Below are positions 11,962 through 57,478 of a stretch of DNA of 64,000 bases, piece by piece. Made by a program: the position numbers and the translations under genes. Position 1 is the stretch's first letter; each line of letters begins with the position of its first letter. The DNA comes from Escherichia coli. GTDB taxonomy: Bacteria > Pseudomonadota > Gammaproteobacteria > Enterobacterales > Enterobacteriaceae. The stretch lies in assembly GCF_041248615.1 (NCBI RefSeq), contig NZ_CP158426.1. The stretch is one strand, 5' to 3'. Under the pieces are notes generated by a model. That model searched no databases. It was given only the letters and a program-made list of their open reading frames with translations, and was not told the origin of the DNA.

Positions 11962-12138
11962 CAATGGCACAAATACGGCACAGGAGGAAAATGTGGTGTA
12001 ATTGAATGTGAGGTAACTACTTCACCTTTCAGCCGGGCATCTCACCGAGCACGCGAGCAAAATCGATGCGATTATAAGTCGCAATGGCACAAATACGGCA
12101 CAAGAGGAGAACGTGGTTTACTTAAATGTGAGGTAACT
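11962..12138. repeat. Two 57-bp direct repeats (~89% identical) with 120-bp period next to thrW
   Basis: Copy 1 at 11962-12018 and copy 2 at 12082-12138, both beginning caatggcacaaatacggcaca and ending aatgtgaggtaact. Confidence 0.7.
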
Positions 12139-12150
12139 TATTGATTTAAA

Positions 12151-12226
12151 TGGTGCCGATAATAGGAGTCGAACCTACGACCTTCGCATTACGAATGCGC
12201 TGCTCTACCAACTGAGCTATATCGGC
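12151..12226 (-). tRNA. thrW: tRNA-Thr (anticodon CGT)
   Basis: 76-nt reverse-strand sequence GCCGATATAGCTCAGTTGGTAGAGCAGCGCATTCGTAATGCGAAGGTCGTAGGTTCGACTCCTATTATCGGCACCA with cloverleaf features. Confidence 0.9.
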
Positions 12227-29404: not shown

Positions 29405-29420
29405 GGCAAAAGGCGTGCCA
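29405..29420 (-). promoter_or_regulatory. Sigma-54 promoter (-24/-12) for lafB operon
   Basis: Reverse strand TGGCAC-GCCTT-TTGCC, perfect GG-N10-GC spacing, ~32 bp upstream of lafB start. Confidence 0.6.
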
Positions 29421-41908: not shown

Positions 41909-41945
41909 TTCCTGCGTCACTCCTGCTTCAATCCGCATACGCTAA

Positions 41946-41960
41946 GCAATCGCCGTGCCA
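41946..41960 (-). promoter_or_regulatory. Sigma-54 promoter for lfgB-L operon
   Basis: Reverse strand TGGCAC-GGCGA-TTGC, perfect consensus. Confidence 0.6.
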
Positions 41961-42914: not shown

Positions 42915-44339
42915 ATGTCTGAATTTGAATTGCTCGTGAAAGATCTTCTTTTAAAATCAGAAGAAGACGAGAAAAAGCGACAAGAAAAAGATCGAGAATT
43001 AATTTCAAAGGTTCTTGAAATCTATGATCAAAAATATGTTGCAGAACTCCTACGAAAAGTAGGAAAAAATGAATGGAGCAGAGAAACACTTAACCGTTGG
43101 ATAAATGGTAAGTGTAACCCTAAACAATTAACTTCTGCTGAGGAAACTTTACTTCGAAAGATGCTCCCAGAACCTCCCGAACATCATCCTAACTATACAT
43201 TTCGTTTTATTGATTTATTCGCAGGGATTGGTGGTATTCGTAAAGGCTTCGAAAATATTGGTGGGCAGTGTGTTTTTACTAGCGAATGGAATAAAGAAGC
43301 GGTAAGAACCTACAAAGCTAATTGGTTTAATGATGAACTAAATCATAAATTTAATCTTGATATACGAGAAGTCACTTTAAGTGATAGAGATGATGTTTCC
43401 GAAATGGAAGCCTATAATCATATAGACAAAAATATTCCAGATCATGATGTCCTTCTGGCCGGTTTTCCATGTCAACCCTTTAGTCTGGCTGGGGTAAGCA
43501 AGAAAAATTCTCTGGGGCGTGCACATGGTTTTGAATGTGAGGCACAAGGAACACTATTTTTTGATGTCGCTCGAATTATTAAATCAAAAAAACCAGCTAT
43601 TTTTGTGCTTGAGAATGTGAAGAACCTTAAAAGTCATGATAAAGGTAAGACTTTTAAAGTCATCATGGAAACACTCAATGAATTAGGGTATGAAGTCGCC
43701 GATGCTGGTGTGACTGGCTCAGATGATCCTAAAATTATAGATGGAAAACATTTTTTACCCCAACATCGTGAGCGTATAGTGTTGGTAGGATTTCGTAGGG
43801 ATCTAAATATTCACAAGGATTTCACGTTACGAAATATTAACCGCTTTTACCCTCAAAACAGGCCAACATTTGGTGAATTATTAGATCATGATGTTGACGA
43901 CAAATATATTTTGACTCCAAGGTTATGGGAATATCTTTACAATTATGCAAAAAAACATGCAGCAAAAGGAAATGGATTTGGTTTTGGTTTAGTGGATCCT
44001 AAAAATCCAGATAGTATCGCACGAACGCTGTCTGCTCGTTACCATAAAGATGGCTCTGAAATACTGATCGATCGTGGCTGGGATAAGGCTGTCGGTGAAA
44101 TCGATTTTAGTAATCCAGCGAATCAAGAGAATCGACCAAGAAGACTGACACCTCATGAATGTGCCAGGTTAATGGGTTTTGAAAAACCAGGGGGAAGACC
44201 TTTTAGAATACCTGTATCAGATACTCAAGCTTATAGACAATTTGGGAACTCAGTTGTTGTGCCAGTATTTGAAGCTGTAGCAAGATTACTAGAACCGTAC
44301 ATACAAAAGGCTGTCAGCATGCAAGTTATTAACGATTAA
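42915..44339 (+). CDS. DNA cytosine-5 methyltransferase, M.EcoRII/Dcm family (predicted CCWGG specificity)
   Basis: Motif I FAGIGG, motif [10 protein letters not shown], motif VI ENV; near full-length match to recalled M.EcoRII/Dcm; AT-rich. Confidence 0.9.
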
Positions 44340-44363
44340 TAATAATTAACTTTCACTATTGTG

Positions 44364-44386
44364 AGGCCTTTTTTATTAAAGGCCTC
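44364..44386. terminator. Bidirectional hairpin between convergent methylase and endonuclease genes
   Basis: gaggcc-ttttttattaaa-ggcctc. Confidence 0.55.
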
Positions 44387-44426
44387 TAAATATATAATCA
44401 TAAGTTATTATAAGTATACTTTTATA

Positions 44427-45632
44427 TTATACAAAATCTTCATACAGCGTTATTAACTGTGTGATAAAACCCTCTAACGTTAATAATCCCTCCCTGATTT
44501 CCTCCGGATATTTTTTATGAAGAGGGGAAGGTACAACCAAGGTGACACCTTCAGCTCTCATTTCGTTAAATTGAGCAACTGAGACACCCTCTTGTAAGGT
44601 AAACAAATATATTTTGTTGATTTTATTTGCTTCATTGAGTGCCTGACGCCACCGATCCTTACATGTTGTTTTTACAGCAAGCATACGGAGTTTTTCTCTT
44701 GGAAAGTGATCATCATGGTAAGCTGCCGCTGATGGAAAAAGAAAATCGGGTTTCTTTTTTCCTTCAGTAATACATTGAGTAGCAAAATGATGCAGTCCAT
44801 GCTCAATAAAAATTTGCTCAAGATGTAGCTCCAGTGATTTCCCGGCTCGAGATTTTCTTCGATTACTAACAGAGTTAGCCATAGCTATAAAATCATCTAC
44901 AGAACCAAACCCTTGACGGATGATGTCCAGTACGTGAATTTCTTCAACCATTAGAAAGAGATCATATTCAATACGGCGGCGTTCTAAAAGTTGGTCATCT
45001 GGACTGGTTACGCCTGTTGGGTAATAACCCGCAGCATATTGAATAATCTCTAAGCCAGAAGGAAAGCTATGTTTCCAGCTTTCCGGAATAACATATTCCT
45101 TTTGAGAGATTTTTGGCCTTGATGCGAGTACACCAAGTATTTCACTGGCAGGCCCAAACATTAAAGTTCCAGGAATGATCTCCCCAATAGCTGATTCCAG
45201 TACATCCTCTTCTTCTGGGCTAACACAAACCCATACATCAACACTTTTGCTGTCTCTCCCTGGCTCATGTTCAAACGCAAGCACAGACAAAGCACCTGTA
45301 TTTTCCGGATCCTGTAGGGGACTGCCAGCCCCCCACCGAGTGATGCGTTTTTCATTTCTTGTTTGCCCGAAATACTTATTATTGTAGTAAATAGCGCGAA
45401 CCTCACTGTCTACACATTCATGAGAGGAATAAGTTGCGCGCAATAAAACCGAAGGATTTTTTTCTGACGTATGATCTATAGATGGGAAAAGTTCAGCGAC
45501 GATACCAGAAGGGATATATACCCCCACTTGATGCCCTCCTGTTGCACCAGTGTCGTTTGCTGAAAGACGTTTAATATAGAGATAGTTGTTACCACCGACC
45601 TTATCAAGCAGCCAATCTTGTAATCCTGACAT
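44427..45632 (-). CDS. Type IIE restriction endonuclease, EcoRII family
   Basis: 401 aa; N-terminus YIKRLSANDTGATGGHQVG and catalytic domain match recalled R.EcoRII closely. Confidence 0.9.
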   Translation of the reverse strand: MSGLQDWLLDKVGGNNYLYIKRLSANDTGATGGHQVGVYIPSGIVAELFPSIDHTSEKNPSVLLRATYSSHECVDSEVRAIYYNNKYFGQTRNEKRITRWGAGSPLQDPENTGALSVLAFEHEPGRDSKSVDVWVCVSPEEEDVLESAIGEIIPGTLMFGPASEILGVLASRPKISQKEYVIPESWKHSFPSGLEIIQYAAGYYPTGVTSPDDQLLERRRIEYDLFLMVEEIHVLDIIRQGFGSVDDFIAMANSVSNRRKSRAGKSLELHLEQIFIEHGLHHFATQCITEGKKKPDFLFPSAAAYHDDHFPREKLRMLAVKTTCKDRWRQALNEANKINKIYLFTLQEGVSVAQFNEMRAEGVTLVVPSPLHKKYPEEIREGLLTLEGFITQLITLYEDFV

Positions 45633-45804: not shown

Positions 45805-46080
45805 ATGAAAATCACCCCGACTATGCCAGGCAATCGCCCGACAGTCACAACGGCAGGCTCCAGCCAGCCGCGCAAAGGCACGGCGACCACCACGACGCTA
45901 AGCGCCGACGACATTACCCAGGCGGGATTGCAGTCTGCCCAGCAAACACTGAACGACCAGCAAGAGAGCGATATCGACAGCGATAAAGTGGCGCAAATGC
46001 AGGCGATGCTGGCCTCCGGCAGCCTGCAAGTGGACACCGAACAGTTAGCCAGCGACATGCTGAGTTTTTTCCAGAACTAA
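45805..46080 (+). CDS. lfgM: Anti-sigma-28 factor FlgM homologue
   Basis: 91 aa, conserved C-terminal sigma-28-binding region. Confidence 0.75.
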   Translation: MKITPTMPGNRPTVTTAGSSQPRKGTATTTTLSADDITQAGLQSAQQTLNDQQESDIDSDKVAQMQAMLASGSLQVDTEQLASDMLSFFQN

Positions 46081-46092
46081 GAGGCCGATGAA

Positions 46093-46521
46093 GTGAGTAT
46101 CCGGTTACAACAGGTGAAGGCGTTGTTGCAGGGAATTCGTGACGATGACGCGCTGTATGATTCCCTGCGCGAACTTCTCCAGCGTCAGCGGATCTGCATG
46201 ATTCGCCGCGCCAGCGAAGAGCTGCTGGCGGTAAACGAGGAGATAACCCATCACTATGAGCAGTTGCATGGGCATAGCCATCAGCGGCACAGCCTGCTGA
46301 AAATGCTTAATGTCAGTGTAAATCGTGACGGTCTGGCGCAGGTTTTTGCCTGGCTTCCGGCGGTACAAAAAGCGGCAGCACAACAGTTGTGGCAACGCCT
46401 TGAGCAAAAAGCGGAACGCTGCAAAGCCTACAACGACAAAAACGGCGAGCTGTTGATTCGCCAGTATGAATTTATTCAGTCTTTTTTAGGTAGCGAAGCA
46501 GATTTTCTCTATCAGGAATAA
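46093..46521 (+). CDS. lfgN: FlgN-like export chaperone (GTG start)
   Basis: 142 aa helical protein immediately after flgM homologue. Confidence 0.6.
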   Translation: MSIRLQQVKALLQGIRDDDALYDSLRELLQRQRICMIRRASEELLAVNEEITHHYEQLHGHSHQRHSLLKMLNVSVNRDGLAQVFAWLPAVQKAAAQQLWQRLEQKAERCKAYNDKNGELLIRQYEFIQSFLGSEADFLYQE

Positions 46522-46597
46522 CGCGAATACCTTCCCCATAGCGGAAATGGATTTTCCGCCTGATTCACAATCCTTTGTTTTTGATTATAAAAATTCC

Positions 46598-46613
46598 CGG
46601 CACGCTTATTGCA
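46598..46613 (+). promoter_or_regulatory. Sigma-54 promoter upstream of the unknown 311-aa gene and transferase gene
   Basis: CGGCAC-GCTTA-TTGCA with correct GG-N10-GC spacing; lies inside the ORF-track N-terminus, implying the real start is at 46648. Confidence 0.5.
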
Positions 46614-46647
46614 CATTCCGCAAAGTAATAAAGACTGGAAGCCACCT

Positions 46648-47580
46648 ATGAGTTTTATTGAATGTTACGAACCGGAATACGTGCGCAATTTTATGACGCA
46701 ATATCCCGATTCGCCTTTGTACATCCGCAAGGTGTGGAAAAACGAGATTCGCCAGAGCCTGATGCTGACAGAGCCAGAAAGCTGCGAAGCGGTGCTCAAC
46801 GATGCCAGGGCCTTTGATTTACAGCTCACCTACCGCCCGGCGGAAGATAATGCCGCAGAACTCTCCGCGCGCGATGCGATAGTAAACCAGGTCATTTTGA
46901 GCACCCTTACGCTCCCCGATTTACCCCCGGAGCTTTCACTGTACGCCGTCGGGATTTTGCTCTCCCGCGCCAGCAAAATGCCGGGCAGAGACGGAGATAT
47001 TCTTGCCCGCTTGACGACGCTGCCACAGGCGCTGGCCGATCATGCACAAAAAGGCACGCTACAGGCACAGTTCGCCCAGCTGCCGCCCGTGCCACAGCTG
47101 GCGCGCCAGTTGATGACGCTGCTCGGCAGTTGTGCGTTTGACTGGTCGATTCTGCCGGAAAGCCCGCGCAAAACTTCGCTGCCGTTGCAGATGCCTTTGC
47201 TGGCGCTACATGACGCCAACAGCGAAGCCCTGTTACAACAGCAGCTTCAGGCACAGTGGCAAACCACCTGGCAACAGCATTTTGCCACCGCGCCCTGGAT
47301 GATGCGTAACTGGCTGATTTACCGCGTTTACCATGAGGTGATTGGGCAGGCAGACGGAGCAGATTATTGCCCGCTGGTGTGCGATTTTTATCTTATCCGC
47401 ACGTTAATCAGTTTATGGACGCTGGATGGTTCTCCGCTGCGACAGGAGGATATTTTCGCCCTCTTTGCCATGTTTGAACGCTGGCGAGCCAGTGAAAATG
47501 CTGTGCTGATTCGCCAACAAATTCAGGCTGAACGTTCCGCAGATCCCCTGCTTTATGCGTTTTCACTGCTGTCTTGCTAA
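46648..47580 (+). CDS. Hypothetical protein (311 aa), no recognisable domain; start at MSFIECYEPE
   Basis: ORF with RBS ggaag 7 nt upstream; sits between flgN homologue and the large transferase gene. Confidence 0.5.
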   Translation: MSFIECYEPEYVRNFMTQYPDSPLYIRKVWKNEIRQSLMLTEPESCEAVLNDARAFDLQLTYRPAEDNAAELSARDAIVNQVILSTLTLPDLPPELSLYAVGILLSRASKMPGRDGDILARLTTLPQALADHAQKGTLQAQFAQLPPVPQLARQLMTLLGSCAFDWSILPESPRKTSLPLQMPLLALHDANSEALLQQQLQAQWQTTWQQHFATAPWMMRNWLIYRVYHEVIGQADGADYCPLVCDFYLIRTLISLWTLDGSPLRQEDIFALFAMFERWRASENAVLIRQQIQAERSADPLLYAFSLLSC

Positions 47581-47626
47581 CGCTTTTTGGCCGGTTTTCC
47601 CGGCCTTATCGACTTCGTAAACTATC

Positions 47627-50092
47627 ATGCAAACCCTCATCAAAACACTCGCCACCCAGCGCGAAAAACCGTTCGTCAGCGTCGTCACGCCCACATGGAA
47701 CCGTAGCGCATTCCTGCCGTACCTGCTCTATATGTACCGCTATCAGGACTACCCGGCAGACCGCCGCGAACTGGTCATCCTCGACGACTCGCCGCAAAGC
47801 CATCAGCACATCATCGACCGTTTGACCGATGGCACGCCGGAAGCCTTTAACATCCGCTACATCCATCATCAGGAAAGACTGCCGCTGGGCAAAAAACGCA
47901 ACATGCTCAATGAACTGGCAGTGGGGGAATATATCCTCTGCATGGATGACGACGACTACTACCCGGCAGATAAAATCTCTTACACCATCGCCATAATGCA
48001 AAAACACCGGGCGCTCATCTCCGGTTCCGACCAGATCCCCATCTGGTACAGCCACATCAATCGCATCTTCCAAAGCCGCAGCTTTGGCTCACATAACATC
48101 CTCAACGGCACCTTTTGCTATCACCGTAACTACCTGAAAAAGCACCGTTACGACGATGATTGTAATTTAGGCGAAGAGAAAAGTTTCACCAACAATTTCA
48201 GCGTTAACCCGCTACAACTGCCCGGCGAGCGCACGATTTTGTGTATCTCGCATAGCCACAACACCTTTGATAAAGACTTTATTCTCGGGGCCAGCACGCC
48301 AGTAAACGCGGCGCTTACGGATATCGTCCGCGATCCGCTGCTCCGCAACGCCTATCTGAGTCTGCATAACGCCACTCATCACCAGGCGATCAACCATCAG
48401 GCGATCGATCAGGTCGTACTGATCAATCTGGATAAACGCCCGGATCGCTTACAACAGATCCGTGAAGAACTGGCATTGCTGCATATTCCACCTGAGAAGA
48501 TCACCCGCCTTGCCGCCAGTGAAGATCAAAACGGCCAACGGGGACGACGCCAGTCGCACTTGCAGGCGCTGCGCCTGGCGCAACAGCACGGCTGGCAAAA
48601 CTACCTGCTGCTGGAAGATGACGCGGTTATTCTCAAGCAGGAAAAACATATTCAGGTACTGAACACGCTGCTGGCGAGCCTGGCGAAAATTCCCTGGCAG
48701 GTGATGATCCTTGGCGGCGAAATTTCGCAGGGAACGATGCTAAAAAGTTTGCCGGGGCTGGTGCACGCGCGGGACTGCCGCAAGGTGTGCGCTTATCTGG
48801 TGAACAGCCGCTACTACCCGCAACTGGCGCAGCAGATGAGCAACGATGAGCACTCGCTGGAAGAGTGCTGGCAGCCGCTGCTACACGCCGACAAATGGCT
48901 GGCCTGTTACCCGAGCCTTTGTTACCAGCGACCGGGCTTTAGTGATATCGAGAAAAAAACGACTGACAACATTGCTCACTATTTCAATAAGTTACCCGTA
49001 GCCACCAAGCCATCTACATTACCCATCGCCGATACCATCGGCTTTTTTATGGAAACCTCATTCCACTACGCGCTCTACCGCCCAATCATCACCGCTCTGC
49101 AGGCGCAGGGGCAGAGCTGTACGCTGGTGATCAATGACCGCGTATTTAAACCATTTCTGGATGAAATGCTGGCGACGCTAAAAAGCATTGACGATCCGCA
49201 GCTCAAAGGTATGCGCTTATCTGAAATGCAGGCGCACGGTCAGCGGGTAAAATGCCTGGTCAGCCCCTATCACACGCCCGCGCTCAGTGGCCTGGCAGCG
49301 GTGAACGTCCGCGCCATGTACGGCTTAGCCAAAGAGGCGTGGAACCACGCCGACTGGAATCGTTTTTACCAACGCATTTTGTGTTATAGCCACTACAGCC
49401 AGCAGACACTGGCGCATTTCGGTAGCGCAAAAGTGGTCGGCAATCCACGTTTCGACGCCTGGCATAACGGCACGTTTGCCCGCACTCTGCCGGAAAATAT
49501 TCAACCCGATTCCCGTAAACCTACGGTGCTCTACGCCCCCACGTTTGGCGCATTAAGCTCCCTGCCCCACTGGGCAGAAAAATTGGGGCGCTTAAGCGGT
49601 GATGTGAACCTGATTTGCAAACTGCACCACGGCACCTGCTCGCGCCCGGAAGAAGCTGCATCGCTGGCACTGGCGCGCAGGCATTTAAAACAGCGCACCG
49701 ACTCCGCCCGCCACACGCTGGCGCTACTGGCAAAGGCCGATTACGTGCTGACCGATAACAGCGGCTTTATTTTCGATGCTATCCACGTTGATAAGCGGGT
49801 GATCCTGCTCGACTTTCCGGGCATGAGTGAATTACTCGAAGGCGAGAAAAGCTACTCCACGCCGGAGAGCGCCGATCAGCAAATCCGCGAAATATTGCCG
49901 GTGGCTCATGATATGGCAGAGTTGCGTTACTTGTTGTCAGAGGCGTTTGACTGGGGGGCGGTGCAGGCGCGGCTTACGAAGATTCGTCATCACTATTGCG
50001 ATGCGTTTATGGATGGCAAGGCGGGAGAACGGGCGGCGATGGTGATTGTGGAGGCGCTGGCGGACAAGGAATCGTCAGGGATATGTCGATAA
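47627..50092 (+). CDS. Three-domain transferase: GT2 glycosyltransferase + GT25-like domain + TagF-like CDP-glycerol glycerophosphotransferase domain
   Basis: N-terminal DxD-containing GT2 (CMDDDDYY), central GT25-like (VVLINLDKRPDRL), C-terminal TagF/TagB-type motif (LYAPTFG). Confidence 0.75.
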   Translation: MQTLIKTLATQREKPFVSVVTPTWNRSAFLPYLLYMYRYQDYPADRRELVILDDSPQSHQHIIDRLTDGTPEAFNIRYIHHQERLPLGKKRNMLNELAVGEYILCMDDDDYYPADKISYTIAIMQKHRALISGSDQIPIWYSHINRIFQSRSFGSHNILNGTFCYHRNYLKKHRYDDDCNLGEEKSFTNNFSVNPLQLPGERTILCISHSHNTFDKDFILGASTPVNAALTDIVRDPLLRNAYLSLHNATHHQAINHQAIDQVVLINLDKRPDRLQQIREELALLHIPPEKITRLAASEDQNGQRGRRQSHLQALRLAQQHGWQNYLLLEDDAVILKQEKHIQVLNTLLASLAKIPWQVMILGGEISQGTMLKSLPGLVHARDCRKVCAYLVNSRYYPQLAQQMSNDEHSLEECWQPLLHADKWLACYPSLCYQRPGFSDIEKKTTDNIAHYFNKLPVATKPSTLPIADTIGFFMETSFHYALYRPIITALQAQGQSCTLVINDRVFKPFLDEMLATLKSIDDPQLKGMRLSEMQAHGQRVKCLVSPYHTPALSGLAAVNVRAMYGLAKEAWNHADWNRFYQRILCYSHYSQQTLAHFGSAKVVGNPRFDAWHNGTFARTLPENIQPDSRKPTVLYAPTFGALSSLPHWAEKLGRLSGDVNLICKLHHGTCSRPEEAASLALARRHLKQRTDSARHTLALLAKADYVLTDNSGFIFDAIHVDKRVILLDFPGMSELLEGEKSYSTPESADQQIREILPVAHDMAELRYLLSEAFDWGAVQARLTKIRHHYCDAFMDGKAGERAAMVIVEALADKESSGICR

Positions 50093-50106
50093 AATTCGAT
50101 TTTTTA

Positions 50107-50144
50107 AACATGTCGTTGGAATACGTTTATGCCATCGACATGTT
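50107..50144. terminator. Hairpin between convergent transferase gene and tagD-like gene
   Basis: aacatgtcg ... cgacatgtt 9-bp stem. Confidence 0.45.
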
Positions 50145-50236
50145 TTAGGGATATGTCGAAAAAACGCGATTATTTAAACATATTTAACATAGCCAAACGG
50201 CAGACGGCATCATCTTCTCTCACTACGGGAATTAAA

Positions 50237-50641
50237 TCAGTAGGTGGCTGATTTACCCCTAATCACCTCAATAATCCCCGTCGTCGATACCGACGGCGTA
50301 CGGGGAAAATAGACCACCTCACAGACACACGAGAAATCGTCAAACTTCCCTGCCCAGTCATCACCCATCACTAAAATATCCGCACCGTACCCCCGCAAAT
50401 ACTCCGCTTTCTGCTCCAGCGATTCCTCCAGAAATACGCCATCCACGCACGCCAGCCCGGCGATAATCGCCATGCGGTCATCCTGATGGTAAACCGGTGC
50501 CCTGCCCTTTTTGGCGATGTTCAGGGCGTCGGACGATACGCCGACCAGCAGCCGCTCGCCCAGCTTGCGGGCGCGTTGTAAAAGGCGCAGATGACCGACG
50601 TGAAACACATCGAAGGTGCCGAAGGTGATGACCGTTTTCAT
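50237..50641 (-). CDS. Glycerol-3-phosphate cytidylyltransferase (TagD-like), makes CDP-glycerol
   Basis: FGTFDVFHVGHLRLL (HxGH) and RTPSVSTTGI motifs; start at MKTVITFG two nt after lfiJ stop. Confidence 0.8.
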   Translation of the reverse strand: MKTVITFGTFDVFHVGHLRLLQRARKLGERLLVGVSSDALNIAKKGRAPVYHQDDRMAIIAGLACVDGVFLEESLEQKAEYLRGYGADILVMGDDWAGKFDDFSCVCEVVYFPRTPSVSTTGIIEVIRGKSATY

Positions 50642-50643
50642 CG

Positions 50644-51078
50644 CTACTCCGCTAATTTGTGCCGCAACCAGCACTGAACGGCGATGTCATCCACCGCTTT
50701 CTGCGCTTTCGCCGTGGCGCTTTCCTGCTGCTCGCGGCGTTTGTCGTCCAGCGTCAGGGCCACCACTTTCTCTTCGCACGCCGCCGCCGTCAGGTTTTTC
50801 TGCATTCGCGTGGCTTTGATGTTAGCCAGCGTTTTTTCCTGTTCCTGCCAGGCGATTACCTTGCGCAAAGTACCTTTGTAGCCGCTGACATTTTTCAGCG
50901 ATTCCACCGATGCCGCCGCGCCCGCAGACGTTTTCTCCACCAGGTAGCCTAATGCTTTGATATTGTTGTCATAGCCCGCACAAATCTGTTTTTGCTTTGC
51001 CAGCTCGACGGTTTTGTCTTTGACCGATTTATCCCGCAGGCGCTGCAACTGCGCCAGGGTGTCGATGATTTGTCGCAT
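50644..51078 (-). CDS. lfiJ: FliJ-like export-apparatus stalk protein
   Basis: 144 aa coiled-coil protein immediately downstream of fliI homologue. Confidence 0.6.
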   Translation of the reverse strand: MRQIIDTLAQLQRLRDKSVKDKTVELAKQKQICAGYDNNIKALGYLVEKTSAGAAASVESLKNVSGYKGTLRKVIAWQEQEKTLANIKATRMQKNLTAAACEEKVVALTLDDKRREQQESATAKAQKAVDDIAVQCWLRHKLAE

Positions 51079-51080
51079 AG

Positions 51081-52418
51081 TTACTGTTCTGCCTTTTTGG
51101 CACCAGGAAAGAGAATTTGCAGGCGGCTTTGCACCAGTTCCAGGGAGGCGGGTTCGCGCATCTCCTGGCGCAAAAACCGCTCGATAGCCGGGAACATTTT
51201 CACCGCTTTGTCGACGCTGGCGTCGGCACCTGCCACGTAGCCGCCGAGTGGGATCAGCGGTTTGATCTCCATATAGGCGACGTAGTTTTGCTTTAACGCG
51301 CGGGCAGATTGCTGATGTTCCAGGCTGGTCACCTGGTTCATGCAGCGGCTGATCGACTGGCCGATATCAATGGCCGGATAGAGCCCCGCTTCCGCCAGTT
51401 TGCGGGTTAATACGATATGCCCGTCCAGCACCGCACGGGCGCAGTCGACAATCGGATCTTGCTGGTCGTCGCCTTCCGCCAGCACGGTGTAGATAGCGGT
51501 CATCGATCCCGCGCTTTCGCTGTTGCCTGCGCTCTCGACCAGTTTGGGGATCATGCCGAATGCCGATGGCGGATAGCCTTTGGTGGCGGGTGGTTCGCCG
51601 AGCGAGAGGGCGATTTCCCGCTGCGCCATCGCGTAGCGGGTCAGGGAATCCACCAGCAGTAAAACGTGATGCCCGCGGTCGCGAAACCAGGCGGCGATGG
51701 AGTGGCACAGTTCGGTGGCTTTCAGGCGCATCAGCGGCGATTCATCGGCGGGGGCGACAACGACGATAGACTTCGCCAGCCCGTCCGCGCCCAGCGAGTG
51801 GTCGATAAACTCTTTCACTTCGCGCCCGCGTTCGCCAATCAGCCCAACCACCACGATATCGGCTTTGGTCTGGCGGGTGATCATCCCCAGCAGCACGCTT
51901 TTCCCGACGCCGCTGCCCGCCATCAGCCCGACGCGCTGGCCTTTGCCGATGGTCAGTAGGCCGTTGATCGCTTTCACGCCCACGTCCAGCGGTTCGTCCA
52001 CTGAACGGCGGGTTAAGGGATTGACCGACGGCGGCAGCGGCGGCAGAAGGTCGTTGCCGTTCAGGCGGCCTTTGCCATCCAGCGGTTCGCCGAGGCCATT
52101 CACCACGCGGCCTAACCAGCTTTCGCCAATCAGGATGTCGTGGGCTTTTTCTTCCGGGAAGACGCGCGCCCCCGCCATCAGGCCGACCGGCTGTTTAAAG
52201 GGCATTAAGTAGGTGATGTCGCGGTTAAAGCCCACGGCCTGCGCGTCGATAAGCGTGTGATTGGCGCTTTCGATGCGGCACAGCTGCCCGGTCATTAGCG
52301 GGCAGCCGACACTCTCCAGCAGGATGCCGTTTAGGCGCACCAGCCGCCCGGCGACGCGGGCCAGCGGGATCGACTCCAGCGAGCGCAGCGCGTTATCGAA
52401 AGCGGAAAAATCACTCAC
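51081..52418 (-). CDS. lfiI: Flagellum-specific type III secretion ATPase FliI homologue
   Basis: 445 aa, Walker A GSGVGKS, F1-ATPase beta-like. Confidence 0.9.
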   Translation of the reverse strand: MSDFSAFDNALRSLESIPLARVAGRLVRLNGILLESVGCPLMTGQLCRIESANHTLIDAQAVGFNRDITYLMPFKQPVGLMAGARVFPEEKAHDILIGESWLGRVVNGLGEPLDGKGRLNGNDLLPPLPPSVNPLTRRSVDEPLDVGVKAINGLLTIGKGQRVGLMAGSGVGKSVLLGMITRQTKADIVVVGLIGERGREVKEFIDHSLGADGLAKSIVVVAPADESPLMRLKATELCHSIAAWFRDRGHHVLLLVDSLTRYAMAQREIALSLGEPPATKGYPPSAFGMIPKLVESAGNSESAGSMTAIYTVLAEGDDQQDPIVDCARAVLDGHIVLTRKLAEAGLYPAIDIGQSISRCMNQVTSLEHQQSARALKQNYVAYMEIKPLIPLGGYVAGADASVDKAVKMFPAIERFLRQEMREPASLELVQSRLQILFPGAKKAEQ

Positions 52419-53121
52419 CCTGAGACTCCGGCGTGAGTGTTTCTTTCAGTGCGGTCATGCATTGTTCCAGGCGATGCTCGCAGCCGATATCCAGTTCAGA
52501 TTTGTCGGTGATCACCCGGCATTCGCCCGGCGGCAGATCCGGCGTAGGCGTCAGCCCCCATTCACTGACCTTTTCCGGTACCGCGTCGCGCAGGCGGTTA
52601 AACTCTTCTGTACTCAGCATCACTCGCAGGGTCTCCGGCATCGCCGGGAAGGCCGCCAGCGCCTCTTCCACCAGCGCCAGTAACTGCGTCGGTTGCAGCG
52701 CCAGTTCGCAGCGGATCACCTGGCGGGTGACTTTTTCCACCAGTTGCAGCAAATCTTCCCGCTGTTTACGTTCGATATGGGCGAGGAAATCGTTCACTTT
52801 ACCGGTGATGGCTTCCAGCGGCTGCGCCGCCTCAACAAACTGTTTGCGCCCTTCCTGCTGCCCGGCGAGGCTGCCTTCGGTGTAACCCTGGCGTCGCCCC
52901 TCGGCAAAACCTTGCTGATGACCTTCGCTAAAGCCCTGTTCCTGGCCTTCGGTCATTCCCTGAGCAAACCCTTTTTGCAGCCCTTCCTGAAAACCGTCCA
53001 TCAGCTGGCGCTGGTAATCGGCGGCGCTAATGCTGGCGGTGAGCGGTTCTCCGGTCACCGCACGCTGGCGCGGCGGAAAACGGTGCAGGCGATAGCGCCC
53101 GCGCAGTGTTTCAATGGTCAT
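52411..53121 (-). CDS. lfiH: FliH-like ATPase regulator
   Basis: 236 aa with repeated FxEG motifs, overlaps fliI homologue start. Confidence 0.7.
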   Translation of the reverse strand: MTIETLRGRYRLHRFPPRQRAVTGEPLTASISAADYQRQLMDGFQEGLQKGFAQGMTEGQEQGFSEGHQQGFAEGRRQGYTEGSLAGQQEGRKQFVEAAQPLEAITGKVNDFLAHIERKQREDLLQLVEKVTRQVIRCELALQPTQLLALVEEALAAFPAMPETLRVMLSTEEFNRLRDAVPEKVSEWGLTPTPDLPPGECRVITDKSELDIGCEHRLEQCMTALKETLTPESQGE

Positions 53122-53124
53122 GGG

Positions 53125-54135
53125 TTACTCCGCCGTCTGTTCCGCAAAGAGCTGTAGCTGAATTTCGCCCGCCTCTTCCAGTTCACGGGCGATGCCCATG
53201 ATTTCGCGGCGGATCTGTTCGATACGGCTGACCGGCACCGGCCCCAGGCGCGCGGTGATCGCTTCCAGTTGCTGCGCCTGACGTTTTGGCATTACCGCGT
53301 AAATCGAGCGGCGCAACAGGGCTTCGGTGCCTTTCAGCGCCACCGCCCAGTCTTCCATCGGCACTTCGTCGAGCAGACGTCGACGCACCTCTTCGTTCTG
53401 GCGGCTGAGGATAAAGAAGTCGTACATCTCATCCTGAAGCTGCTCCAGCACGTCCTCGTCGCGCTCGCGCATCTGGTCGAGGATCACCTGCTGGTTACCC
53501 TGGAAGCGGTTGACGATATCCGCCGCCTGTTTGATGCCTTTCACCTTCGAGCCGTGTTCAGAGAGCACCGACAGACCGCGTTCGATCAGCCTGTCCAGTT
53601 CATCCACCACGTCGCGGTTGACGTCGTTGAGTTTCGCCACCCGATAGAGAATTTCGTTTTGCACTGATTCGTTGAGATACGAGAGCACCGCCGCCGAGAT
53701 TTCCGGCGTCAGAAACGCGAGGAACACCGCCTGCAATTGCAGATGTTCTTCGGAGATCAGCATCGCCAGCTGGCGTGGTTCCACCCATTGCAGGCGCGCC
53801 ATCCGCGAGCGGATCTCATCGCCATAAATGCCGTTGATCACGCTGCTGGCGATCTCGGTGCCGAGGGCTTTGTTGAGAATGCCCTGCAACATGGATCGCG
53901 ACGCACCGTTGATCCCGCTCTGCTCCCTGAATTCATCAAAGAAGTTGTTGATCACTTTGCGCGCCATGCTGGTTTTAACGCCGGAAAGCCGCGCCATGTT
54001 TTCGCTCAGGCGCACCACTTCTTCGCGGCTGAGTTTTTGCATCACCGTCGCCGCCGCTTCTTCGCCAAGGCACAGCAGCAGGATCGCCGCCTGTTCCAGG
54101 TAGCTGTTGCTCTTATTTGTTGTCAATTCGCTCAT
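53125..54135 (-). CDS. lfiG: Rotor/switch protein FliG homologue
   Basis: 336 aa FliG family. Confidence 0.85.
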   Translation of the reverse strand: MSELTTNKSNSYLEQAAILLLCLGEEAAATVMQKLSREEVVRLSENMARLSGVKTSMARKVINNFFDEFREQSGINGASRSMLQGILNKALGTEIASSVINGIYGDEIRSRMARLQWVEPRQLAMLISEEHLQLQAVFLAFLTPEISAAVLSYLNESVQNEILYRVAKLNDVNRDVVDELDRLIERGLSVLSEHGSKVKGIKQAADIVNRFQGNQQVILDQMRERDEDVLEQLQDEMYDFFILSRQNEEVRRRLLDEVPMEDWAVALKGTEALLRRSIYAVMPKRQAQQLEAITARLGPVPVSRIEQIRREIMGIARELEEAGEIQLQLFAEQTAE

Positions 54136-55759
54136 TGCTGGTGATCCATTGTCTGAGAACTTCGGCTACGCGATCGGTGTCGCTCATGGCCAGTTTTTGC
54201 AGGAACTCGAGTTTTACTTCCAGGCCGGAACTCTGAGACGGCAGGCTGTCATCGCCGGGCAGCGACGGCAGATCGACGTTTTTGCGCTCCTCTTCCGGCA
54301 TGGCAATCCACGGTTCGCTGACGGCTTCCGGTTCTGGTGTGATAACCGGCGCACGCACCGCCATCAGGCGTTTCATTACCGGGCGCACCACAAAGAACAG
54401 CAACAACAGAGCCAGCAGGCCGCAACCAATCAGCCGCACCCAGGCCAGCACGCTGTCATCTTTCCACAGCGGGATCACCGGTTCGACCGGAGCCACCTGC
54501 GGCACAAAGTTCAGCAGCGATAAGGTGAGATTGTCTCCACGTTGCACGTCGATCCCGGCAGCATTGTTCAGCAATGCGGTAAGCTGCGTGGTCTGCTCCG
54601 GCTTCCAGTTTTTCAGCGCCGGAGCGTTTTGATTGAGCACCACCGCCACGTTAAGGCGTTTCACCGCAAATCCGGGATGCTGAATATGCTGGACGCTGCG
54701 GTCGTAAGAGTAATCGCGCTTGCTTTCGCTGTGTTTGGATAACGCTTCCGGCGAGCGATTTTCTTCCGTACCGTTGGTCATCTGATTCGCCGCAACGGGC
54801 GGACGGTTGCTGAGCGAGCCGGGTACGCCCATCGCCACCTGATTAGTGTCGCTGTCCAGCACGTTTTCTTCGCGGTTGATTTTCGGCGTGTCGCCGTAGT
54901 GTTCCTGGGTTTCGTCGATGGTGCTGAGATCGAGATCCGGCATCACGCTGACGCGGTAATTCCCGCTGCCGACCAGCGAATCCAGCACGTTCGCCACGCT
55001 GGCGCGGGTTTTGTCCTGGATGTCTTTGAGGATCTGATCGCGTTTACGGGTTGCGGCAGAAACCGCCTCGCCTGCGCCAATGCCGTCGGTCAGCAGATTT
55101 CCCGCCTGATCGACGACGCTAACTTTGCTGGCGTGCAGCCCCGGAATGCTGCCGGACACCAGATGCACAATGGCGTTCACCTGGTCCATATTCAGCTTCG
55201 CGCCGTAGTGCAGGCGCACCACCACCGAGGCGCTGTTTTGCGGCTCATCGCTGACCACAAACGAACTTTCTTCGTTAAGCGCCAGATGCACCCGCGCACT
55301 CTCCACCGCGTCCAGCGACATAATGCTCTGCGCCAGCTCCCCTTCGAGGCTGCGTTTGTAGCGCACGTTCTGCACGAACTGGCTGCTGCCGAGCACTTCG
55401 TCTTTGTCCATCAGCTCGTAGCCGCTGGGCAATATCGCCTGCACGCCTTTGGCGGCAAGGGTCATGCGCGTTTTCGACAGTTCATCTTCCGGCACCAGAA
55501 TTTGCCCGCTCTGCGGGTCAATGCGGTAGCTGAGCTTTTCACCGTCCAGCACGGTGACAATCTGCGACACGGGCAGATTTTCCTGGCGTCCGTAGAGCGA
55601 GACGTAGCCGCGATTACCGGTCCACAGCACACTAACGATAATCGCCGTCGCCGCAACGGCAAGCCCCACTCCCGCCATCAATGCCCAGCGTTTGTTATCT
55701 GCAAGACGCAGTCGAAACGCCGGAAACGCCTGGGTTAACTTCTTTATTTGTGCATTCAT
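54113..55759 (-). CDS. lfiF: MS-ring protein FliF homologue
   Basis: 548 aa with two TM segments. Confidence 0.85.
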   Translation of the reverse strand: MNAQIKKLTQAFPAFRLRLADNKRWALMAGVGLAVAATAIIVSVLWTGNRGYVSLYGRQENLPVSQIVTVLDGEKLSYRIDPQSGQILVPEDELSKTRMTLAAKGVQAILPSGYELMDKDEVLGSSQFVQNVRYKRSLEGELAQSIMSLDAVESARVHLALNEESSFVVSDEPQNSASVVVRLHYGAKLNMDQVNAIVHLVSGSIPGLHASKVSVVDQAGNLLTDGIGAGEAVSAATRKRDQILKDIQDKTRASVANVLDSLVGSGNYRVSVMPDLDLSTIDETQEHYGDTPKINREENVLDSDTNQVAMGVPGSLSNRPPVAANQMTNGTEENRSPEALSKHSESKRDYSYDRSVQHIQHPGFAVKRLNVAVVLNQNAPALKNWKPEQTTQLTALLNNAAGIDVQRGDNLTLSLLNFVPQVAPVEPVIPLWKDDSVLAWVRLIGCGLLALLLLFFVVRPVMKRLMAVRAPVITPEPEAVSEPWIAMPEEERKNVDLPSLPGDDSLPSQSSGLEVKLEFLQKLAMSDTDRVAEVLRQWITSNERIDNK

Positions 55760-55763
55760 AGGG

Positions 55764-56105
55764 TTAGATCGACATACTCATCAGATCGTTAAATCCGGTG
55801 GCGATTTTGTTGCGCACCTGCACCAGCGCGGAGAAAGAGAGCGACGCCTGCTGGCTGGCGATCATCGCACCTGCTAAATCATCACTTTTGCCCGTGTCGA
55901 TAGCTGTTTGCTGCTGCTCCGCCACCTGCTGGAACTGGTCAACGTGACCGAGCGCGCCGGACATAATGCGGTTAAACGAAACGTCCGGGTCGGTGGAACT
56001 GAAGGCCATGGCGGGCAGCACCGGTGCCTGGGCGTTGGCCTGCATCCGCTGCACGTCCTGCATGATTTGCGCCTGCATGGTGCTGTTGATTGTGGTAATG
56101 CTCAT
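55764..56105 (-). CDS. lfiE: Basal-body protein FliE homologue
   Basis: 113 aa, conserved C-terminus. Confidence 0.75.
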   Translation of the reverse strand: MSITTINSTMQAQIMQDVQRMQANAQAPVLPAMAFSSTDPDVSFNRIMSGALGHVDQFQQVAEQQQTAIDTGKSDDLAGAMIASQQASLSFSALVQVRNKIATGFNDLMSMSI

Positions 56106-56119
56106 TTTTAACTTCCGGG

Positions 56120-57106
56120 TCAGGAGAAAACTTCGATACCTTGCTTGCGCATGGAGGCCAGTCGATAGCGCAGTGCGCGCGGGGTAATGCCTAACAGGTC
56201 GGCAATTTTGCTGCGGTTGCCCTGATATTTACGCATCAGGTCGGCGATATATTGATACTGGGCGCTACGTCCGGCCTGGCCTAAATCGCTGGTTTCCGCA
56301 ACAGATACGGAGGGCTGAACAGGCCATTGCAGTTCACTGTGATCGGCAACGTCTATTTCCGGCAGGCCTAAGGCATCCGGGAAAATCACGCCGTCGCGAT
56401 TTAAAATCATTCCACGCTGAATGGCGTTCTCCAGCTGGCGCACGTTGCCGGGCCAGCGGTAATTGAGCAGCGCCCGGCGAGTAGATTCTGAAAGGGTGAT
56501 ATTTTTCACCAGCACTGTGGAGTATTTTTTAATAAATGACTCTGCCAGCGGGATAATATCGTTCAGGCGTTCACGCAGCGGCGGCATGGTAATAGGAATA
56601 ACCGCCAGACGATAATAGAGATCTTCACGAAAACGCCCGGCGGCGACTTCCTGCTCAAGGTTTTTATTGGTGCAGGCAATCAGGCGAAAATTGAGTTTAA
56701 TTTGTCGGTTACTGCCTAATCGCTCAACCTGCTGTTCCTGCAATACGCGTAATATTTTGGCCTGTAGCGCCAGCGGCATATCGCCAATTTCATCGAGCAA
56801 TAAGGTGCCGTTATTCGCCAGTTCCATTTTTCCTGGCACGCTGGCAATTGCGCCGGTAAATGCGCCTTTGTCGTAGCCAAATAAGGTAGATTCCAGCATG
56901 TTTTCCGGGATCGCCGCGCAGTTCACGCCGATATAGGGCGCGTTATCATTTTCACCAAAGGCTACGGTGTGAATATATTTCGCCACGCATTCTTTGCCCG
57001 CGCCGGTTTCGCCCTGAATGAGCACCGGCACGTTAAATGCGGCGACACGCTTTGCCAGAGTAAAAGCGTTAATGCTGGAAGCGGCAGTTGCAATAAGTTC
57101 AGACAT
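56120..57106 (-). CDS. lafK: Sigma-54-dependent transcriptional activator lacking an N-terminal receiver domain
   Basis: AAA+ domain with Walker A (GETGAGKE) and GAFTGA motif, C-terminal HTH; only 328 aa, in-frame stop upstream. Confidence 0.8.
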   Translation of the reverse strand: MSELIATAASSINAFTLAKRVAAFNVPVLIQGETGAGKECVAKYIHTVAFGENDNAPYIGVNCAAIPENMLESTLFGYDKGAFTGAIASVPGKMELANNGTLLLDEIGDMPLALQAKILRVLQEQQVERLGSNRQIKLNFRLIACTNKNLEQEVAAGRFREDLYYRLAVIPITMPPLRERLNDIIPLAESFIKKYSTVLVKNITLSESTRRALLNYRWPGNVRQLENAIQRGMILNRDGVIFPDALGLPEIDVADHSELQWPVQPSVSVAETSDLGQAGRSAQYQYIADLMRKYQGNRSKIADLLGITPRALRYRLASMRKQGIEVFS

Positions 57107-57260: not shown

Positions 57261-57300
57261 CCCCTCACCCTAACCCTCTCCCCGGATGGGGCGAGGGGAC
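57261..57300. repeat. GC-rich palindromic repeat unit
   Basis: cccctcaccctaaccctctccccggatggggcgaggggac; inverted copy at 63737-63762. Confidence 0.6.
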
Positions 57301-57478
57301 AGACCGCAGACTGATTGGCGAAAATCACTCCCATTAAGCAATTAATCGATTAATTATTTTTTCATCCTATTAATAATTTGCCCCTTTCACTCCCCCTCTA
57401 TTTAATACCTCACCTTGTGTCACTGCCTGATTTGCGTGCACAAAATCGCCCATACCATTACAGCAGAGAAAGTAAGCC

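Follow-up and report, generated by a model that had tools for sequence, protein, structure and literature searches.

A TagD protein (cd02171) encoded in Flag-2 flagellar loci has already been described: De Maayer et al. (2020; PMC6993521) reported it in variable region 1 (VR1), between lfiJ and lfgN (235 strains, ten genera), where it co-occurs with TagB-like and GT2-1 glycosyltransferases, and a teichoic-acid-like flagellin glycan was proposed. VR1 is an integration hot spot, and that work treats TagD as VR1 cargo; it is silent on operon structure, on the lfiJ-tagD junction and on a GT2-TagF fusion (PMC6993521). The locus analysed here, in a 64,000-nt stretch of Escherichia coli DNA (the window), is that very case, since the tagD-like gene lies between lfiJ and lfgN in the company of glycosyltransferase and methylase genes. 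Both the gene and its position had been reported before, along with the idea that TagD serves flagellin modification (PMC6993521), and the copy of E. coli 042 already bears the name G3P cytidylyltransferase. What we add is an ordinary refinement, modest in extent, of the operon structure, and a caution on the substrate assignment.

Several characterized systems resemble parts of this locus. TagD of B. subtilis and TarD of S. aureus (PDB 1COZ, 1N1D, 2B7L) are likewise paired with a TagF-family enzyme, but they belong to wall teichoic acid loci and the Flag-2 enzyme to a Gram-negative flagellar locus. Gram-negative capsule loci (A. pleuropneumoniae Cps3B/Cps7B) also pair a TagD-family with a TagF-like enzyme and yield glycosyl-glycerol-phosphate products (PMC8262930); these glycerol-3-phosphate cytidylyltransferases (GCTs) are ~70% identical to TagD, retain all motifs and serve capsule polymers, whereas the Flag-2 enzyme falls in another subfamily. 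The Type A system of C. difficile (ftaABCD, cd0241-cd0244, with the glycosyltransferase cd0240) provides a precedent on a flagellum, in which the glycosyltransferase sets a sugar on flagellin, a nucleotidyltransferase supplies the CDP-activated donor, and FtaB and the TagF-like phosphotransferase FtaD attach a CDP-activated phospho-moiety to the O-GlcNAc of flagellin; the modification genes of that system, too, are encoded with flagellar genes. It differs in its donor, CDP-N-methylthreonine, and in its nucleotidyltransferase, which is of a non-TagD family and modelled on GDP-mannose pyrophosphorylase; its enzymes are separate and form their own operon, while the Flag-2 locus has a TagD fold, a fused GT2-TagF protein and two convergent flagellar units. 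Finally, the lateral lafK-fliEFGHIJ(L) operons of Vibrio parahaemolyticus and Aeromonas hydrophila are arranged in the same gene order and likewise head the flagellar hierarchy (PMC4481668, PMC5013049).

In the window, whose region 46000-52500 is 100% identical to NZ_LT599825, the corresponding genes form a compact string on the minus strand. The string is headed by lafK (56120-57106; PGAP CDS), encoding a sigma-54-dependent activator (Pfam Sigma54_activat, 216.7 bits, plus HTH_8), with a 372-nt divergent intergenic region upstream. It continues with the homologues of FliE (lfiE, 55764-56105; Pfam FliE, TIGR00205; 14 nt from the lafK stop), the MS-ring protein FliF (lfiF, 54113-55759; Pfam YscJ_FliF, TIGR00206; 4-nt gap), FliG (lfiG, 53125-54135; Pfam FliG_N, FliG_M and FliG_C; 23-nt overlap with lfiF), FliH (lfiH, 52411-53121; NF009925, 315.7 bits; 3-nt gap) and the export ATPase FliI (lfiI, 51081-52418; NF005535, 765 bits, above cutoff; 8-nt overlap with lfiH). 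The 144-aa FliJ homologue (lfiJ, 50644-51078; TIGR02473, 58.3 bits against a cutoff of 50.45, and Pfam FliJ) follows after 2 nt, and the 134-aa TagD-like cytidylyltransferase gene (50237-50641, stop codon at 50239-50237) comes last. All seven junctions from lafK to the tagD-like gene range from -23 to +14 nt; by contrast, gaps of 126 nt precede the lafV-like gene and 204 nt separate lafA from lafB. A consensus scan found no sigma-54-type site upstream of lafK, which fits the class I model of Aeromonas. The lateral operons of V. parahaemolyticus and A. hydrophila are not known to extend past fliJ(L) or to carry an appended cytidylyltransferase gene.

The junction itself was read directly from the sequence as GGAG-TAG-CG-ATG (50639-50650, minus strand). 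The lfiJ stop codon TAG lies at 50646-50644, the spacer CG at 50643-50642 and the tagD-like ATG at 50641-50639, so that the gap is exactly 2 nt, the same as between lfiI and lfiJ. A Shine-Dalgarno sequence (GGAG, 50650-50647) sits inside the 3' end of lfiJ, 5 nt ahead of the ATG. PGAP annotates both genes with identical boundaries, and on this evidence lfiJ and the tagD-like gene are two confidently identified genes and no chance pattern. The sequence-only reading had already placed the tagD-like start 2 nt past the stop of the fliJ homologue, and this reading was correct; its coordinates, 50237-51078, span lfiJ as well as the tagD-like gene. A GTG start at 50674 would give a 145-aa frame overlapping lfiJ, and it was rejected: all 81 homologues start at the ATG-encoded MK(T)VITFGTFD. 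Scans of the minus strand from lfiJ to the tagD-like ATG found no sigma-70-, sigma-54- or terminator-like site, and a sigma-28 consensus scan gave only noisy matches with 4-5 mismatches, none usable.

This tight arrangement extends beyond E. coli. Where the tagD-like gene adjoins lfiJ in other species (12 loci from other Escherichia, Pseudocitrobacter, Citrobacter and Enterobacter, four genera), the junction measures -4 to +2 nt in all 12 and takes the form +2 (TAGCC-ATG), -4 (ATGA) or -1 (TAATG), with protein identity down to 71-76%. The ATGA and TAATG overlaps, found in Citrobacter and Enterobacter, indicate that the tagD-like gene is probably coupled to lfiJ. Because the genes share a strand and a 2-nt gap, the ribosome-binding site lies in lfiJ, no promoter or terminator consensus intervenes and the junction is tight in 12/12 loci, there is a strong case that the tagD-like gene is co-transcribed with lafK-lfiEFGHIJ, as had been proposed earlier. 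In the E. coli locus it very probably closes the Flag-2 lafK operon, and the earlier claim that it is terminal there holds in this strain because the next gene is convergent.

The convergent intergenic spacer (50093-50236, 144 nt) is AT-rich and contains two repeats, one inverted and 18 nt long (50106-50145), the other direct and 35 nt long (fold z = -3.8). No canonical intrinsic terminator was found downstream of the tagD-like gene in 50093-50236, and an Rfam search of 49900-50700 returned zero matches. In another Flag-2 locus (L002) the same position holds an intact fic gene and a duplicated 3' fragment of tagD, and the spacer appears to be the scar of such a fic cassette. Gap sizes suggest that the cassette is also present in loci L003-L004.

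The placement of the gene varies in other genera. In Enterobacter CC120223-11 and RIT418 it lies behind lfgMN on the other strand, and in Cedecea, Rahnella, Buttiauxella and Enterobacter R1 the order is lfiJ-GT-lafV-tagD, in which a GT2 gene and a lafV-like gene intervene. Several Citrobacter loci have, close behind tagD, an ATG that is served by a plausible ribosome-binding site, and further genes are probably present downstream of tagD there. Two Enterobacter loci have an additional gene, orf255, ahead of tagD; it is missing from the window, and a Pfam search with it gave no match. A TagF-like partner is present in 16 of the 18 Flag-2-linked loci. At least eight genera carry the module within Flag-2, in varied arrangements and always appended to flagellar operons. 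Judged from these gene orders, attachment of the tagD-like gene to the early operon is lineage-specific.

We compared the TagD-like protein with characterized cytidylyltransferases. It falls in the fold family of TagD and TarD, Pfam PF01467 (CTP_transf_like; 73.8 bits, cutoff 21), with residues 5-125 covering profile positions 1-132 of 133, and like those two it is a ~130-aa protein, collinear with them end to end. Its full-length PDB match to TagD (1COZ) has an E value of 4.5e-33, TarD (2B7L) also matches, and the next family follows at 2.4e-16. Its identity is 46% to TagD of B. subtilis and 40% to TarD, whereas those two share 69.5% with each other; characterized GCTs are reported as about 60-70% identical (PMC8262930). 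TIGR01518, the equivalog model of the G3P enzyme, is the best-scoring NCBIfam model, yet the score of 115.5 bits is below the cutoff of 165.4. The PGAP name is at family level only ('adenylyltransferase/cytidyltransferase family protein'), and database names are inconsistent and include 'choline-phosphate cytidylyltransferase'. The phosphoglycerate cytidylyltransferase CpgD, tried as an alternative model, was rejected as a member of the unrelated family COG1213.

The catalytic motifs are partly retained. HxGH, whose His14 and His17 are essential for GCT catalysis (PMC8262930), is present as HVGH (residues 14-17), with H14 and H17 invariant in 81/81 subfamily members. K44, the arginine at position 55/56 (R56 here) and MGDDW are also shared with TagD and TarD. 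At the position of RTxGISTT, in which Arg113 is essential in GCTs, the Flag-2 enzyme reads RTPSVSTT (RTEGISTT in TagD/TarD); R, T and STT are invariant in the subfamily, x is an invariant P and G is replaced by S or A. Lys44 and Lys46 of GCTs touch the phosphates of CDP-glycerol; in the Flag-2 enzyme position 46 is an invariant G within K44-K45-G-R47-x-P49, which carries a one-residue insertion (KKGRxP for KQKK), and K45 or R47 may stand in for Lys46. Trp74 is replaced by Leu. The dimer-interface motif RYVDEVI reads ACVDGVF, in which only V-D-x-V is retained (subfamily consensus [K/R/A]-C-V-D-x-V-F). Members that share the signature of KKGRxP, Leu for Trp74 and RTP[SA][IV]STT are 65-75% identical and range from Actinobacteria to Gammaproteobacteria. 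By these sequence criteria the protein belongs to a distinct, uncharacterized and highly conserved subfamily with changed motifs. A CTP:glycerol-3-phosphate cytidylyltransferase forming CDP-glycerol is the probable assignment and our best guess. The label 'CDP-glycerol-forming' given earlier survives in that form, with TIGR01518 as best model in its favour, and is weakened by the sub-cutoff score, the changes at K46 and W74 and two altered motifs. The GC content of the gene (~0.56-0.60) is similar to that of its neighbours, and no compositional anomaly relative to them was found.

The enzyme presumed to use the CDP donor is encoded next to the tagD-like gene. Here the Flag-2 genes run lfgM-lfgN, the lafV-like gene and GT2-TagF, then the convergent tagD-lfiJ. 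The fusion (GT821; 47627-50092, plus strand) is a predicted bifunctional protein of 821 aa, with an N-terminal GT2 domain at aa 18-132 (Pfam GT2, 60.6 bits) and a TagF-like CDP-alcohol phosphotransferase domain at about aa 460-821 (49004-50089). PF04464 is weak in this copy (16.6 bits, E 0.004, cutoff 22.1) and is matched by 21 of 25 GT821 orthologues (best E 5e-10). A profile of the orthologues searched against PDB sequences retrieved GT2 structures only and did not find TagF; the kinship came to light through the orthologue Pfam matches and a fold search. An AF2 model of the TagF-like domain (pLDDT 89.2, pTM 0.88) gave Foldseek ranks 1-9 to TagF 3L7I-M (E 7e-11, TM 0.64) and then TarL 8VA1, and on the predicted structure the C-terminal domain has a TagF-type GT-B fold. 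The family alignment of this 362-aa domain has invariant histidines at H115, H154, H208 and H209, candidate counterparts of the catalytic TagF residues His444 and His584.

Upstream of the fusion lies the lafV-like gene (46648-47580, plus strand), encoding a FliB-like putative flagellin lysine-N-methylase (NF038110 gives 45.7 bits and would need 85), whose orthologues PGAP labels 'lysine-N-methylase'. A sigma-54-type -24/-12 element, CGGCAC-N5-TTGCA (46598-46613, plus strand), with one mismatch to consensus, is located ~35 nt ahead of its start and is conserved in the Escherichia and Pseudocitrobacter loci. The other two one-mismatch matches in the window lie upstream of lfgB and of lafB/fliD. 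Sigma-54 matches with up to two mismatches number no more than expected by chance in the window, and the position of the three one-mismatch matches is the sole informative aspect of the scan. The site ahead of the lafV-like gene suggests that the lafV-GT half of the module is likewise under Flag-2 control.

The following model best accounts for these data. In E. coli-type Flag-2 loci the tagD-like gene would close the lafK-lfiEFGHIJ transcription unit as its eighth cistron, reached by read-through from lfiJ, to which it is probably also coupled in translation. The encoded enzyme would most likely convert CTP and sn-glycerol-3-phosphate to CDP-glycerol. The GT2 domain of GT821 would place a sugar on LafA, the lateral flagellin, or on some other component of Flag-2, and the TagF-like domain would use CDP-glycerol to add a phosphodiester-linked glycerophosphate to that sugar. 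Co-transcription, the glycerol-3-phosphate substrate and the flagellin acceptor are the steps that we infer. The sub-cutoff equivalog score, the low identity to TagD and TarD and the subfamily changes count against the model, as do the differing position of tagD among genera, the failure to find a canonical terminator downstream and the undetectable Flag-2 expression in E. coli EC958 under laboratory conditions (PMC4637896). Taken as a whole we regard the model as probable, with real room for doubt.

A rival reading concerns the promoter. The tagD-like gene could instead have its own promoter within the lfiI or lfiJ coding sequence and be largely independent of the operon, the tight junction being the product of a compact cargo insertion. 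VR1 is a hot spot for such events (PMC6993521), the gene is able to function in other transcriptional contexts, as its different upstream genes in other genera imply, and weak or non-canonical promoters escape consensus scans. However, the minus strand within lfiJ held no sigma-70-, sigma-54- or sigma-28-like site in our scans, read-through from lfiJ would occur regardless as no terminator intervenes, and the overlapping start and stop codons in Citrobacter and Enterobacter point to coupling; we consider this explanation very unlikely. The earlier statement that there is no room for a promoter is right for the space between the genes, which has no promoter-like site, and too strong for lfiI/lfiJ, where one may lie. 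A separate doubt concerns the target. The tagD-like, GT2-TagF and lafV-like genes might be hitch-hiking cargo that acts on LPS, ECA or capsule, or the whole Flag-2 locus might be silent in E. coli and the arrangement have no regulatory meaning. The same locus does carry unrelated cargo (a restriction-modification system and the fic scar), LafA was undetected in E. coli EC958, with no detectable Flag-2 expression under laboratory conditions (PMC4637896), and polysaccharide loci elsewhere make use of close TagD-like homologues. Against this stand the constant attachment to flagellar operons across genera, the accompanying FliB-like methylase and sigma-54-type promoter, strong purifying selection on the tagD-like gene (dN/dS 0.06-0.12) and its intact state in over 1000 genomes of E. 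coli, and we give this explanation equally little credence.

The substrate assignment is more exposed. The TagD-fold enzyme may activate something other than G3P (a phospho-alcohol, a phosphonate or a phospho-amino acid), with the TagF-like domain transferring that moiety. This would fit the sub-cutoff equivalog score and family-level name, the invariant differences of the subfamily at K46, W74, RTxGISTT and RYVDEVI, and the varied database names; the other PDB relatives include enzymes that act on phosphoethanolamine and a chain annotated as PEP phosphomutase, with a link to phosphonate biosynthesis, and the TagF-like FtaD takes CDP-N-methylthreonine. On the other hand, TagD and TarD are the best full-length matches by a wide margin, NCBIfam also ranks the G3P enzyme first, and the E. 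coli module has no gene for making an unusual phospho-substrate. A TagF-like gene also adjoins the subfamily members outside flagellar loci in Kangiella, Thalassotalea and Parasulfuritortus (PF04464, 170 bits), placing the subfamily beside canonical PF04464 enzymes in polysaccharide loci. We therefore regard a different substrate as unlikely, if worth keeping in mind. It is somewhat less likely again that the subfamily makes a CDP donor other than CDP-sn-glycerol-3-phosphate and, with GT2-TagF, creates a new phosphodiester post-glycosylation modification on a Gram-negative flagellin, its donor synthesis hard-wired to the master-regulator operon.

For glycerophosphate modification as modelled, the tie to early flagellar expression that was drawn earlier applies to E. 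coli, in which the gene very probably sits at the tail of the lafK operon, and not as a conserved design, given the other arrangements in Enterobacter, Cedecea, Rahnella and Buttiauxella. If the model is true, the lateral-flagella programme of E. coli would turn on synthesis of an activated glycerophosphate donor at the same time as its master regulator and export apparatus, while the transferase genes are apparently under a separate sigma-54-type promoter. It would also provide a simple handle on whether Flag-2 flagellin bears a teichoic-acid-like phospho-glycan.

The window is E. coli chromosomal DNA, and its lateral-type Flag-2 flagellar locus spans lafU (about 23250) to lfhA (about 63700). 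Positions 46000-52500 are 100% identical to isolate NRZ14408 (NZ_LT599825); among 5426 complete E. coli genomes, 1253 contain most of this interval. Pfam, NCBIfam and PGAP place eight genes in succession on the minus strand: lafK (57106-56120), lfiE (56105-55764), lfiF (55759-54113), lfiG (54135-53125), lfiH (53121-52411), lfiI (52418-51081), lfiJ (51078-50644) and a 134-aa cytidylyltransferase-fold gene, tagD-like (50641-50237). Identity to NZ_LT599825 does not hold throughout the window: genes upstream of a 57-nt direct repeat (11962-12138; 89% identical, 120-nt spacing, adjoining tRNA-Thr(CGT) at 12151-12226) have coordinates offset by 120 nt, so the window seems to hold 120 extra bases there. 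A type II restriction-modification pair inside Flag-2 (42915-45632), made up of a plus-strand DNA cytosine methyltransferase gene and a minus-strand restriction endonuclease gene, lies between lfgA and lfgM, parting lfgA from lfgMN, and occurs in only 28 of about 1276 complete E. coli genomes with Flag-2.

Read directly from the sequence, the lfiJ stop codon (TAG, 50646-50644) is followed by CG and then by the tagD-like ATG at 50641, exactly the 2-nt gap claimed by the sequence-only reading. A GGAG (50650-50647) sits within lfiJ, 5 nt upstream of this ATG. From lafK to the tagD-like gene, the successive junctions measure +14, +4, -23, +3, -8, +2 and +2 nt. Because junctions in this string span only -23 to +14 nt, the lfiJ/tagD-like junction looks like an operon-internal one and not like the recognised unit boundaries of the locus, where 126 nt precede the lafV-like gene and lafA and lafB are 204 nt apart. 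Downstream, the convergent gene for an 821-aa glycosyltransferase, GT821 (47627-50092, plus strand), is 144 nt away.

On the minus strand between lfiJ and the tagD-like ATG, consensus scans, which are weak evidence, detected no sigma-70-, sigma-54- or sigma-28-like site and no hairpin resembling a terminator; a promoter within lfiI or lfiJ may nevertheless serve the gene. Stronger support for co-transcription comes from comparative conservation of the junction. When one genome per species was scanned, 80 loci with close homologues of the tagD-like gene emerged, 18 of them Flag-2-linked. Wherever the gene comes directly after lfiJ, which is the case in 12 loci, the junction is tight: it measures +2 nt in Escherichia sp. 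E1V33 and the two Pseudocitrobacter loci (one a MAG), -4 nt, with an ATGA overlap, in seven Citrobacter loci and Escherichia sp. MOD1-EC7003, and -1 nt, as TAATG, in Enterobacter sp. kpr-6. Stop/start overlaps are a classic signature of co-transcription with translational coupling. Since the tight junction persists, with such overlaps, while the protein has diverged to 71-76% identity across these loci, we infer that the tagD-like gene is very probably co-transcribed with the lafK-lfiEFGHIJ string. Co-transcription, which had been called almost certain, thus stands as very likely rather than proven. In E. coli EC958, Flag-2 expression was undetectable under laboratory conditions (PMC4637896).

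The sequence-only reading called the product CDP-glycerol-forming. The TagD-like protein is end-to-end collinear with Bacillus subtilis TagD (1COZ/1N1D, E 4.5e-33) and Staphylococcus aureus TarD (2B7L), and the next family, ethanolamine-phosphate cytidylyltransferase, is far weaker (2.4e-16). However, it is only 46% identical to TagD and 40% to TarD, which share 69.5% with each other; characterised CTP:glycerol-3-phosphate cytidylyltransferases, Gram-negative ones included, are about 60-70% identical (PMC8262930). Its TIGR01518 score (115.5) falls under the equivalog cutoff (165.4), and PGAP names it at family level only. An 81-member subfamily alignment retains HxGH and has a distinct invariant signature: K44-K45-G46-R47-x-P49 invariantly replaces KQKK, placing Gly at the position of TagD Lys46, and S74-L75 replaces N-W74, RTP[SA][IV]STT replaces RTEGISTT and [K/R/A]CVDxVF replaces RYVDEVI. 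The subfamily extends, at 65-75% identity, to Nocardioides, Terrabacter, Halieaceae, Kangiella, Thalassotalea and others, with its members often adjoining PF04464 glycerophosphotransferase-family or glycosyltransferase genes, and dN/dS values of 0.06-0.12 indicate strong purifying selection on the tagD-like gene. With the best full-length matches on one side and the altered motifs and low score on the other, the enzyme probably forms CDP-glycerol, and another CDP-activated product is possible.

GT821, the presumed consumer, begins with a GT2 domain at its N-terminus. PF04464 matches the C-terminal domain only weakly in the window copy (E 0.004) but clearly in 21 of 25 orthologues, and NCBI names stand-alone versions CDP-glycerol glycerophosphotransferase family proteins. 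With residues about 460-821 modelled by AlphaFold2 (pLDDT 89), the best match among solved structures is TagF (3L7I-M; E 7e-11, TM 0.64), then TarL. Of the 18 Flag-2-linked loci, 16 have a TagF-like ORF; one exception is cut by a contig end and the other has none within 3.6 kb. The closest characterised analogue is Clostridioides difficile Type A flagellin modification, where a glycosyltransferase adds O-GlcNAc, a nucleotidyltransferase makes the CDP-activated donor and the TagF-like FtaD transfers the phospho-moiety, although that nucleotidyltransferase belongs to a family other than TagD. The gap between the lafV-like and glycosyltransferase genes is 46 nt in the window (47580-47627) versus 178 nt in comparison locus L082 (1779-1958); in most E. 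coli Flag-2 loci this gap exceeds that of the window by about 135 bases.

The 144-nt spacer (50093-50236) between the tagD-like and glycosyltransferase genes resembles the scar of a fic cassette. At this position the E1V33 locus (L002, 7399-8985) carries an intact Fic/DOC gene, which converges on tagD and overlaps the tagD stop, together with ATGTCGA...AAACAT repeats shared with the window and a duplicated, frameshifted tagD 3' fragment. Gap size suggests fic at the same position in Pseudocitrobacter loci L003 and L004, and E. coli O104:H4 has copies of the repeat region, about 75% identical, beside a fic gene at another genomic site.

The best three sigma-54-type -24/-12 matches in the 64 kb, each with one mismatch, lie just upstream of lafB/fliD (29405-29420), lfgB (41945-41960) and the lafV-like gene/GT821 (46598-46613); such matches are no more numerous than chance, and all three are at operon starts in the correct orientation. 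The last is also kept in other Escherichia and Pseudocitrobacter. The scan found no sigma-54-type site in the lafK/lfiM divergent region, which fits the Aeromonas lateral-flagella model where the lafK and fliM(L) units count as class I, independent of LafK (summarised in PMC5013049, PMC4481668). If the Aeromonas model applies, this site distribution would put the tagD-like gene in class I and lafV-GT821 in class II. The 372-nt lafK-lfiM divergent promoter region is AT-rich apart from a GC-rich palindromic repeat-like element, CCCCTCGCCCCATCCGGGGAGAGGGTTAGGGTGAGGGGG (57270-57320); Enterobacter kpr-6 has a similar element after tagD.

The tagD-like gene of Flag-2 was already known. De Maayer et al. 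2020 (PMC6993521) reported TagD (cd02171) in variable region 1 (VR1, lfiJ-lfgN) of 235 strains from ten genera, co-occurring with TagB-like enzymes and a GT2-1 glycosyltransferase, and proposed teichoic-acid-like polymers within the Flag-2 flagellin glycan; operon structure was not discussed. UniRef already names the E. coli 042 copy (CBG33092.1) glycerol-3-phosphate cytidylyltransferase. The finding is therefore a correct, small refinement of what was known.

The proposed tie between donor synthesis and early flagellar expression suits the E. coli-type arrangement but not every lineage, since some place tagD elsewhere. In Cedecea davisae, Rahnella laticis, Buttiauxella and Enterobacter sp. 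R1, lfiJ, GT2, lafV-like and tagD share one strand and the entire module is attached to the lfi string. Enterobacter sp. CC120223-11 and RIT418 have lfiJ followed by a GT-TagF gene, with tagD on the opposite strand after lfgM-lfgN (plus orf255 or a stand-alone tagF). Several Citrobacter loci have an ATG, preceded by a plausible ribosome-binding site, close behind tagD and probably carry more genes there. The conserved 255-aa orf255, absent from the window and without a Pfam match, has a GASKGG (GxSxG-like) motif and lies directly upstream of tagD in one Enterobacter Flag-2 locus (L016, 6210-6977) and of lfiJ-tagD in another (L014, kpr-6, 5475-6242). L014 (1183-7393) is unusual in reading lfgM, lfgN, lafV-like, GT2-TagF, orf255, lfiJ, tagD, its stored sequence stopping just past tagD; because all genes share a strand and no lfiI lies upstream of lfiJ, this order suggests either joint movement of lfiJ and tagD or an inversion. 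Membership of donor synthesis in the early operon is thus lineage-specific; what is conserved is that the module is attached, at their 3' ends, to the two convergent flagellar units on either side of VR1.
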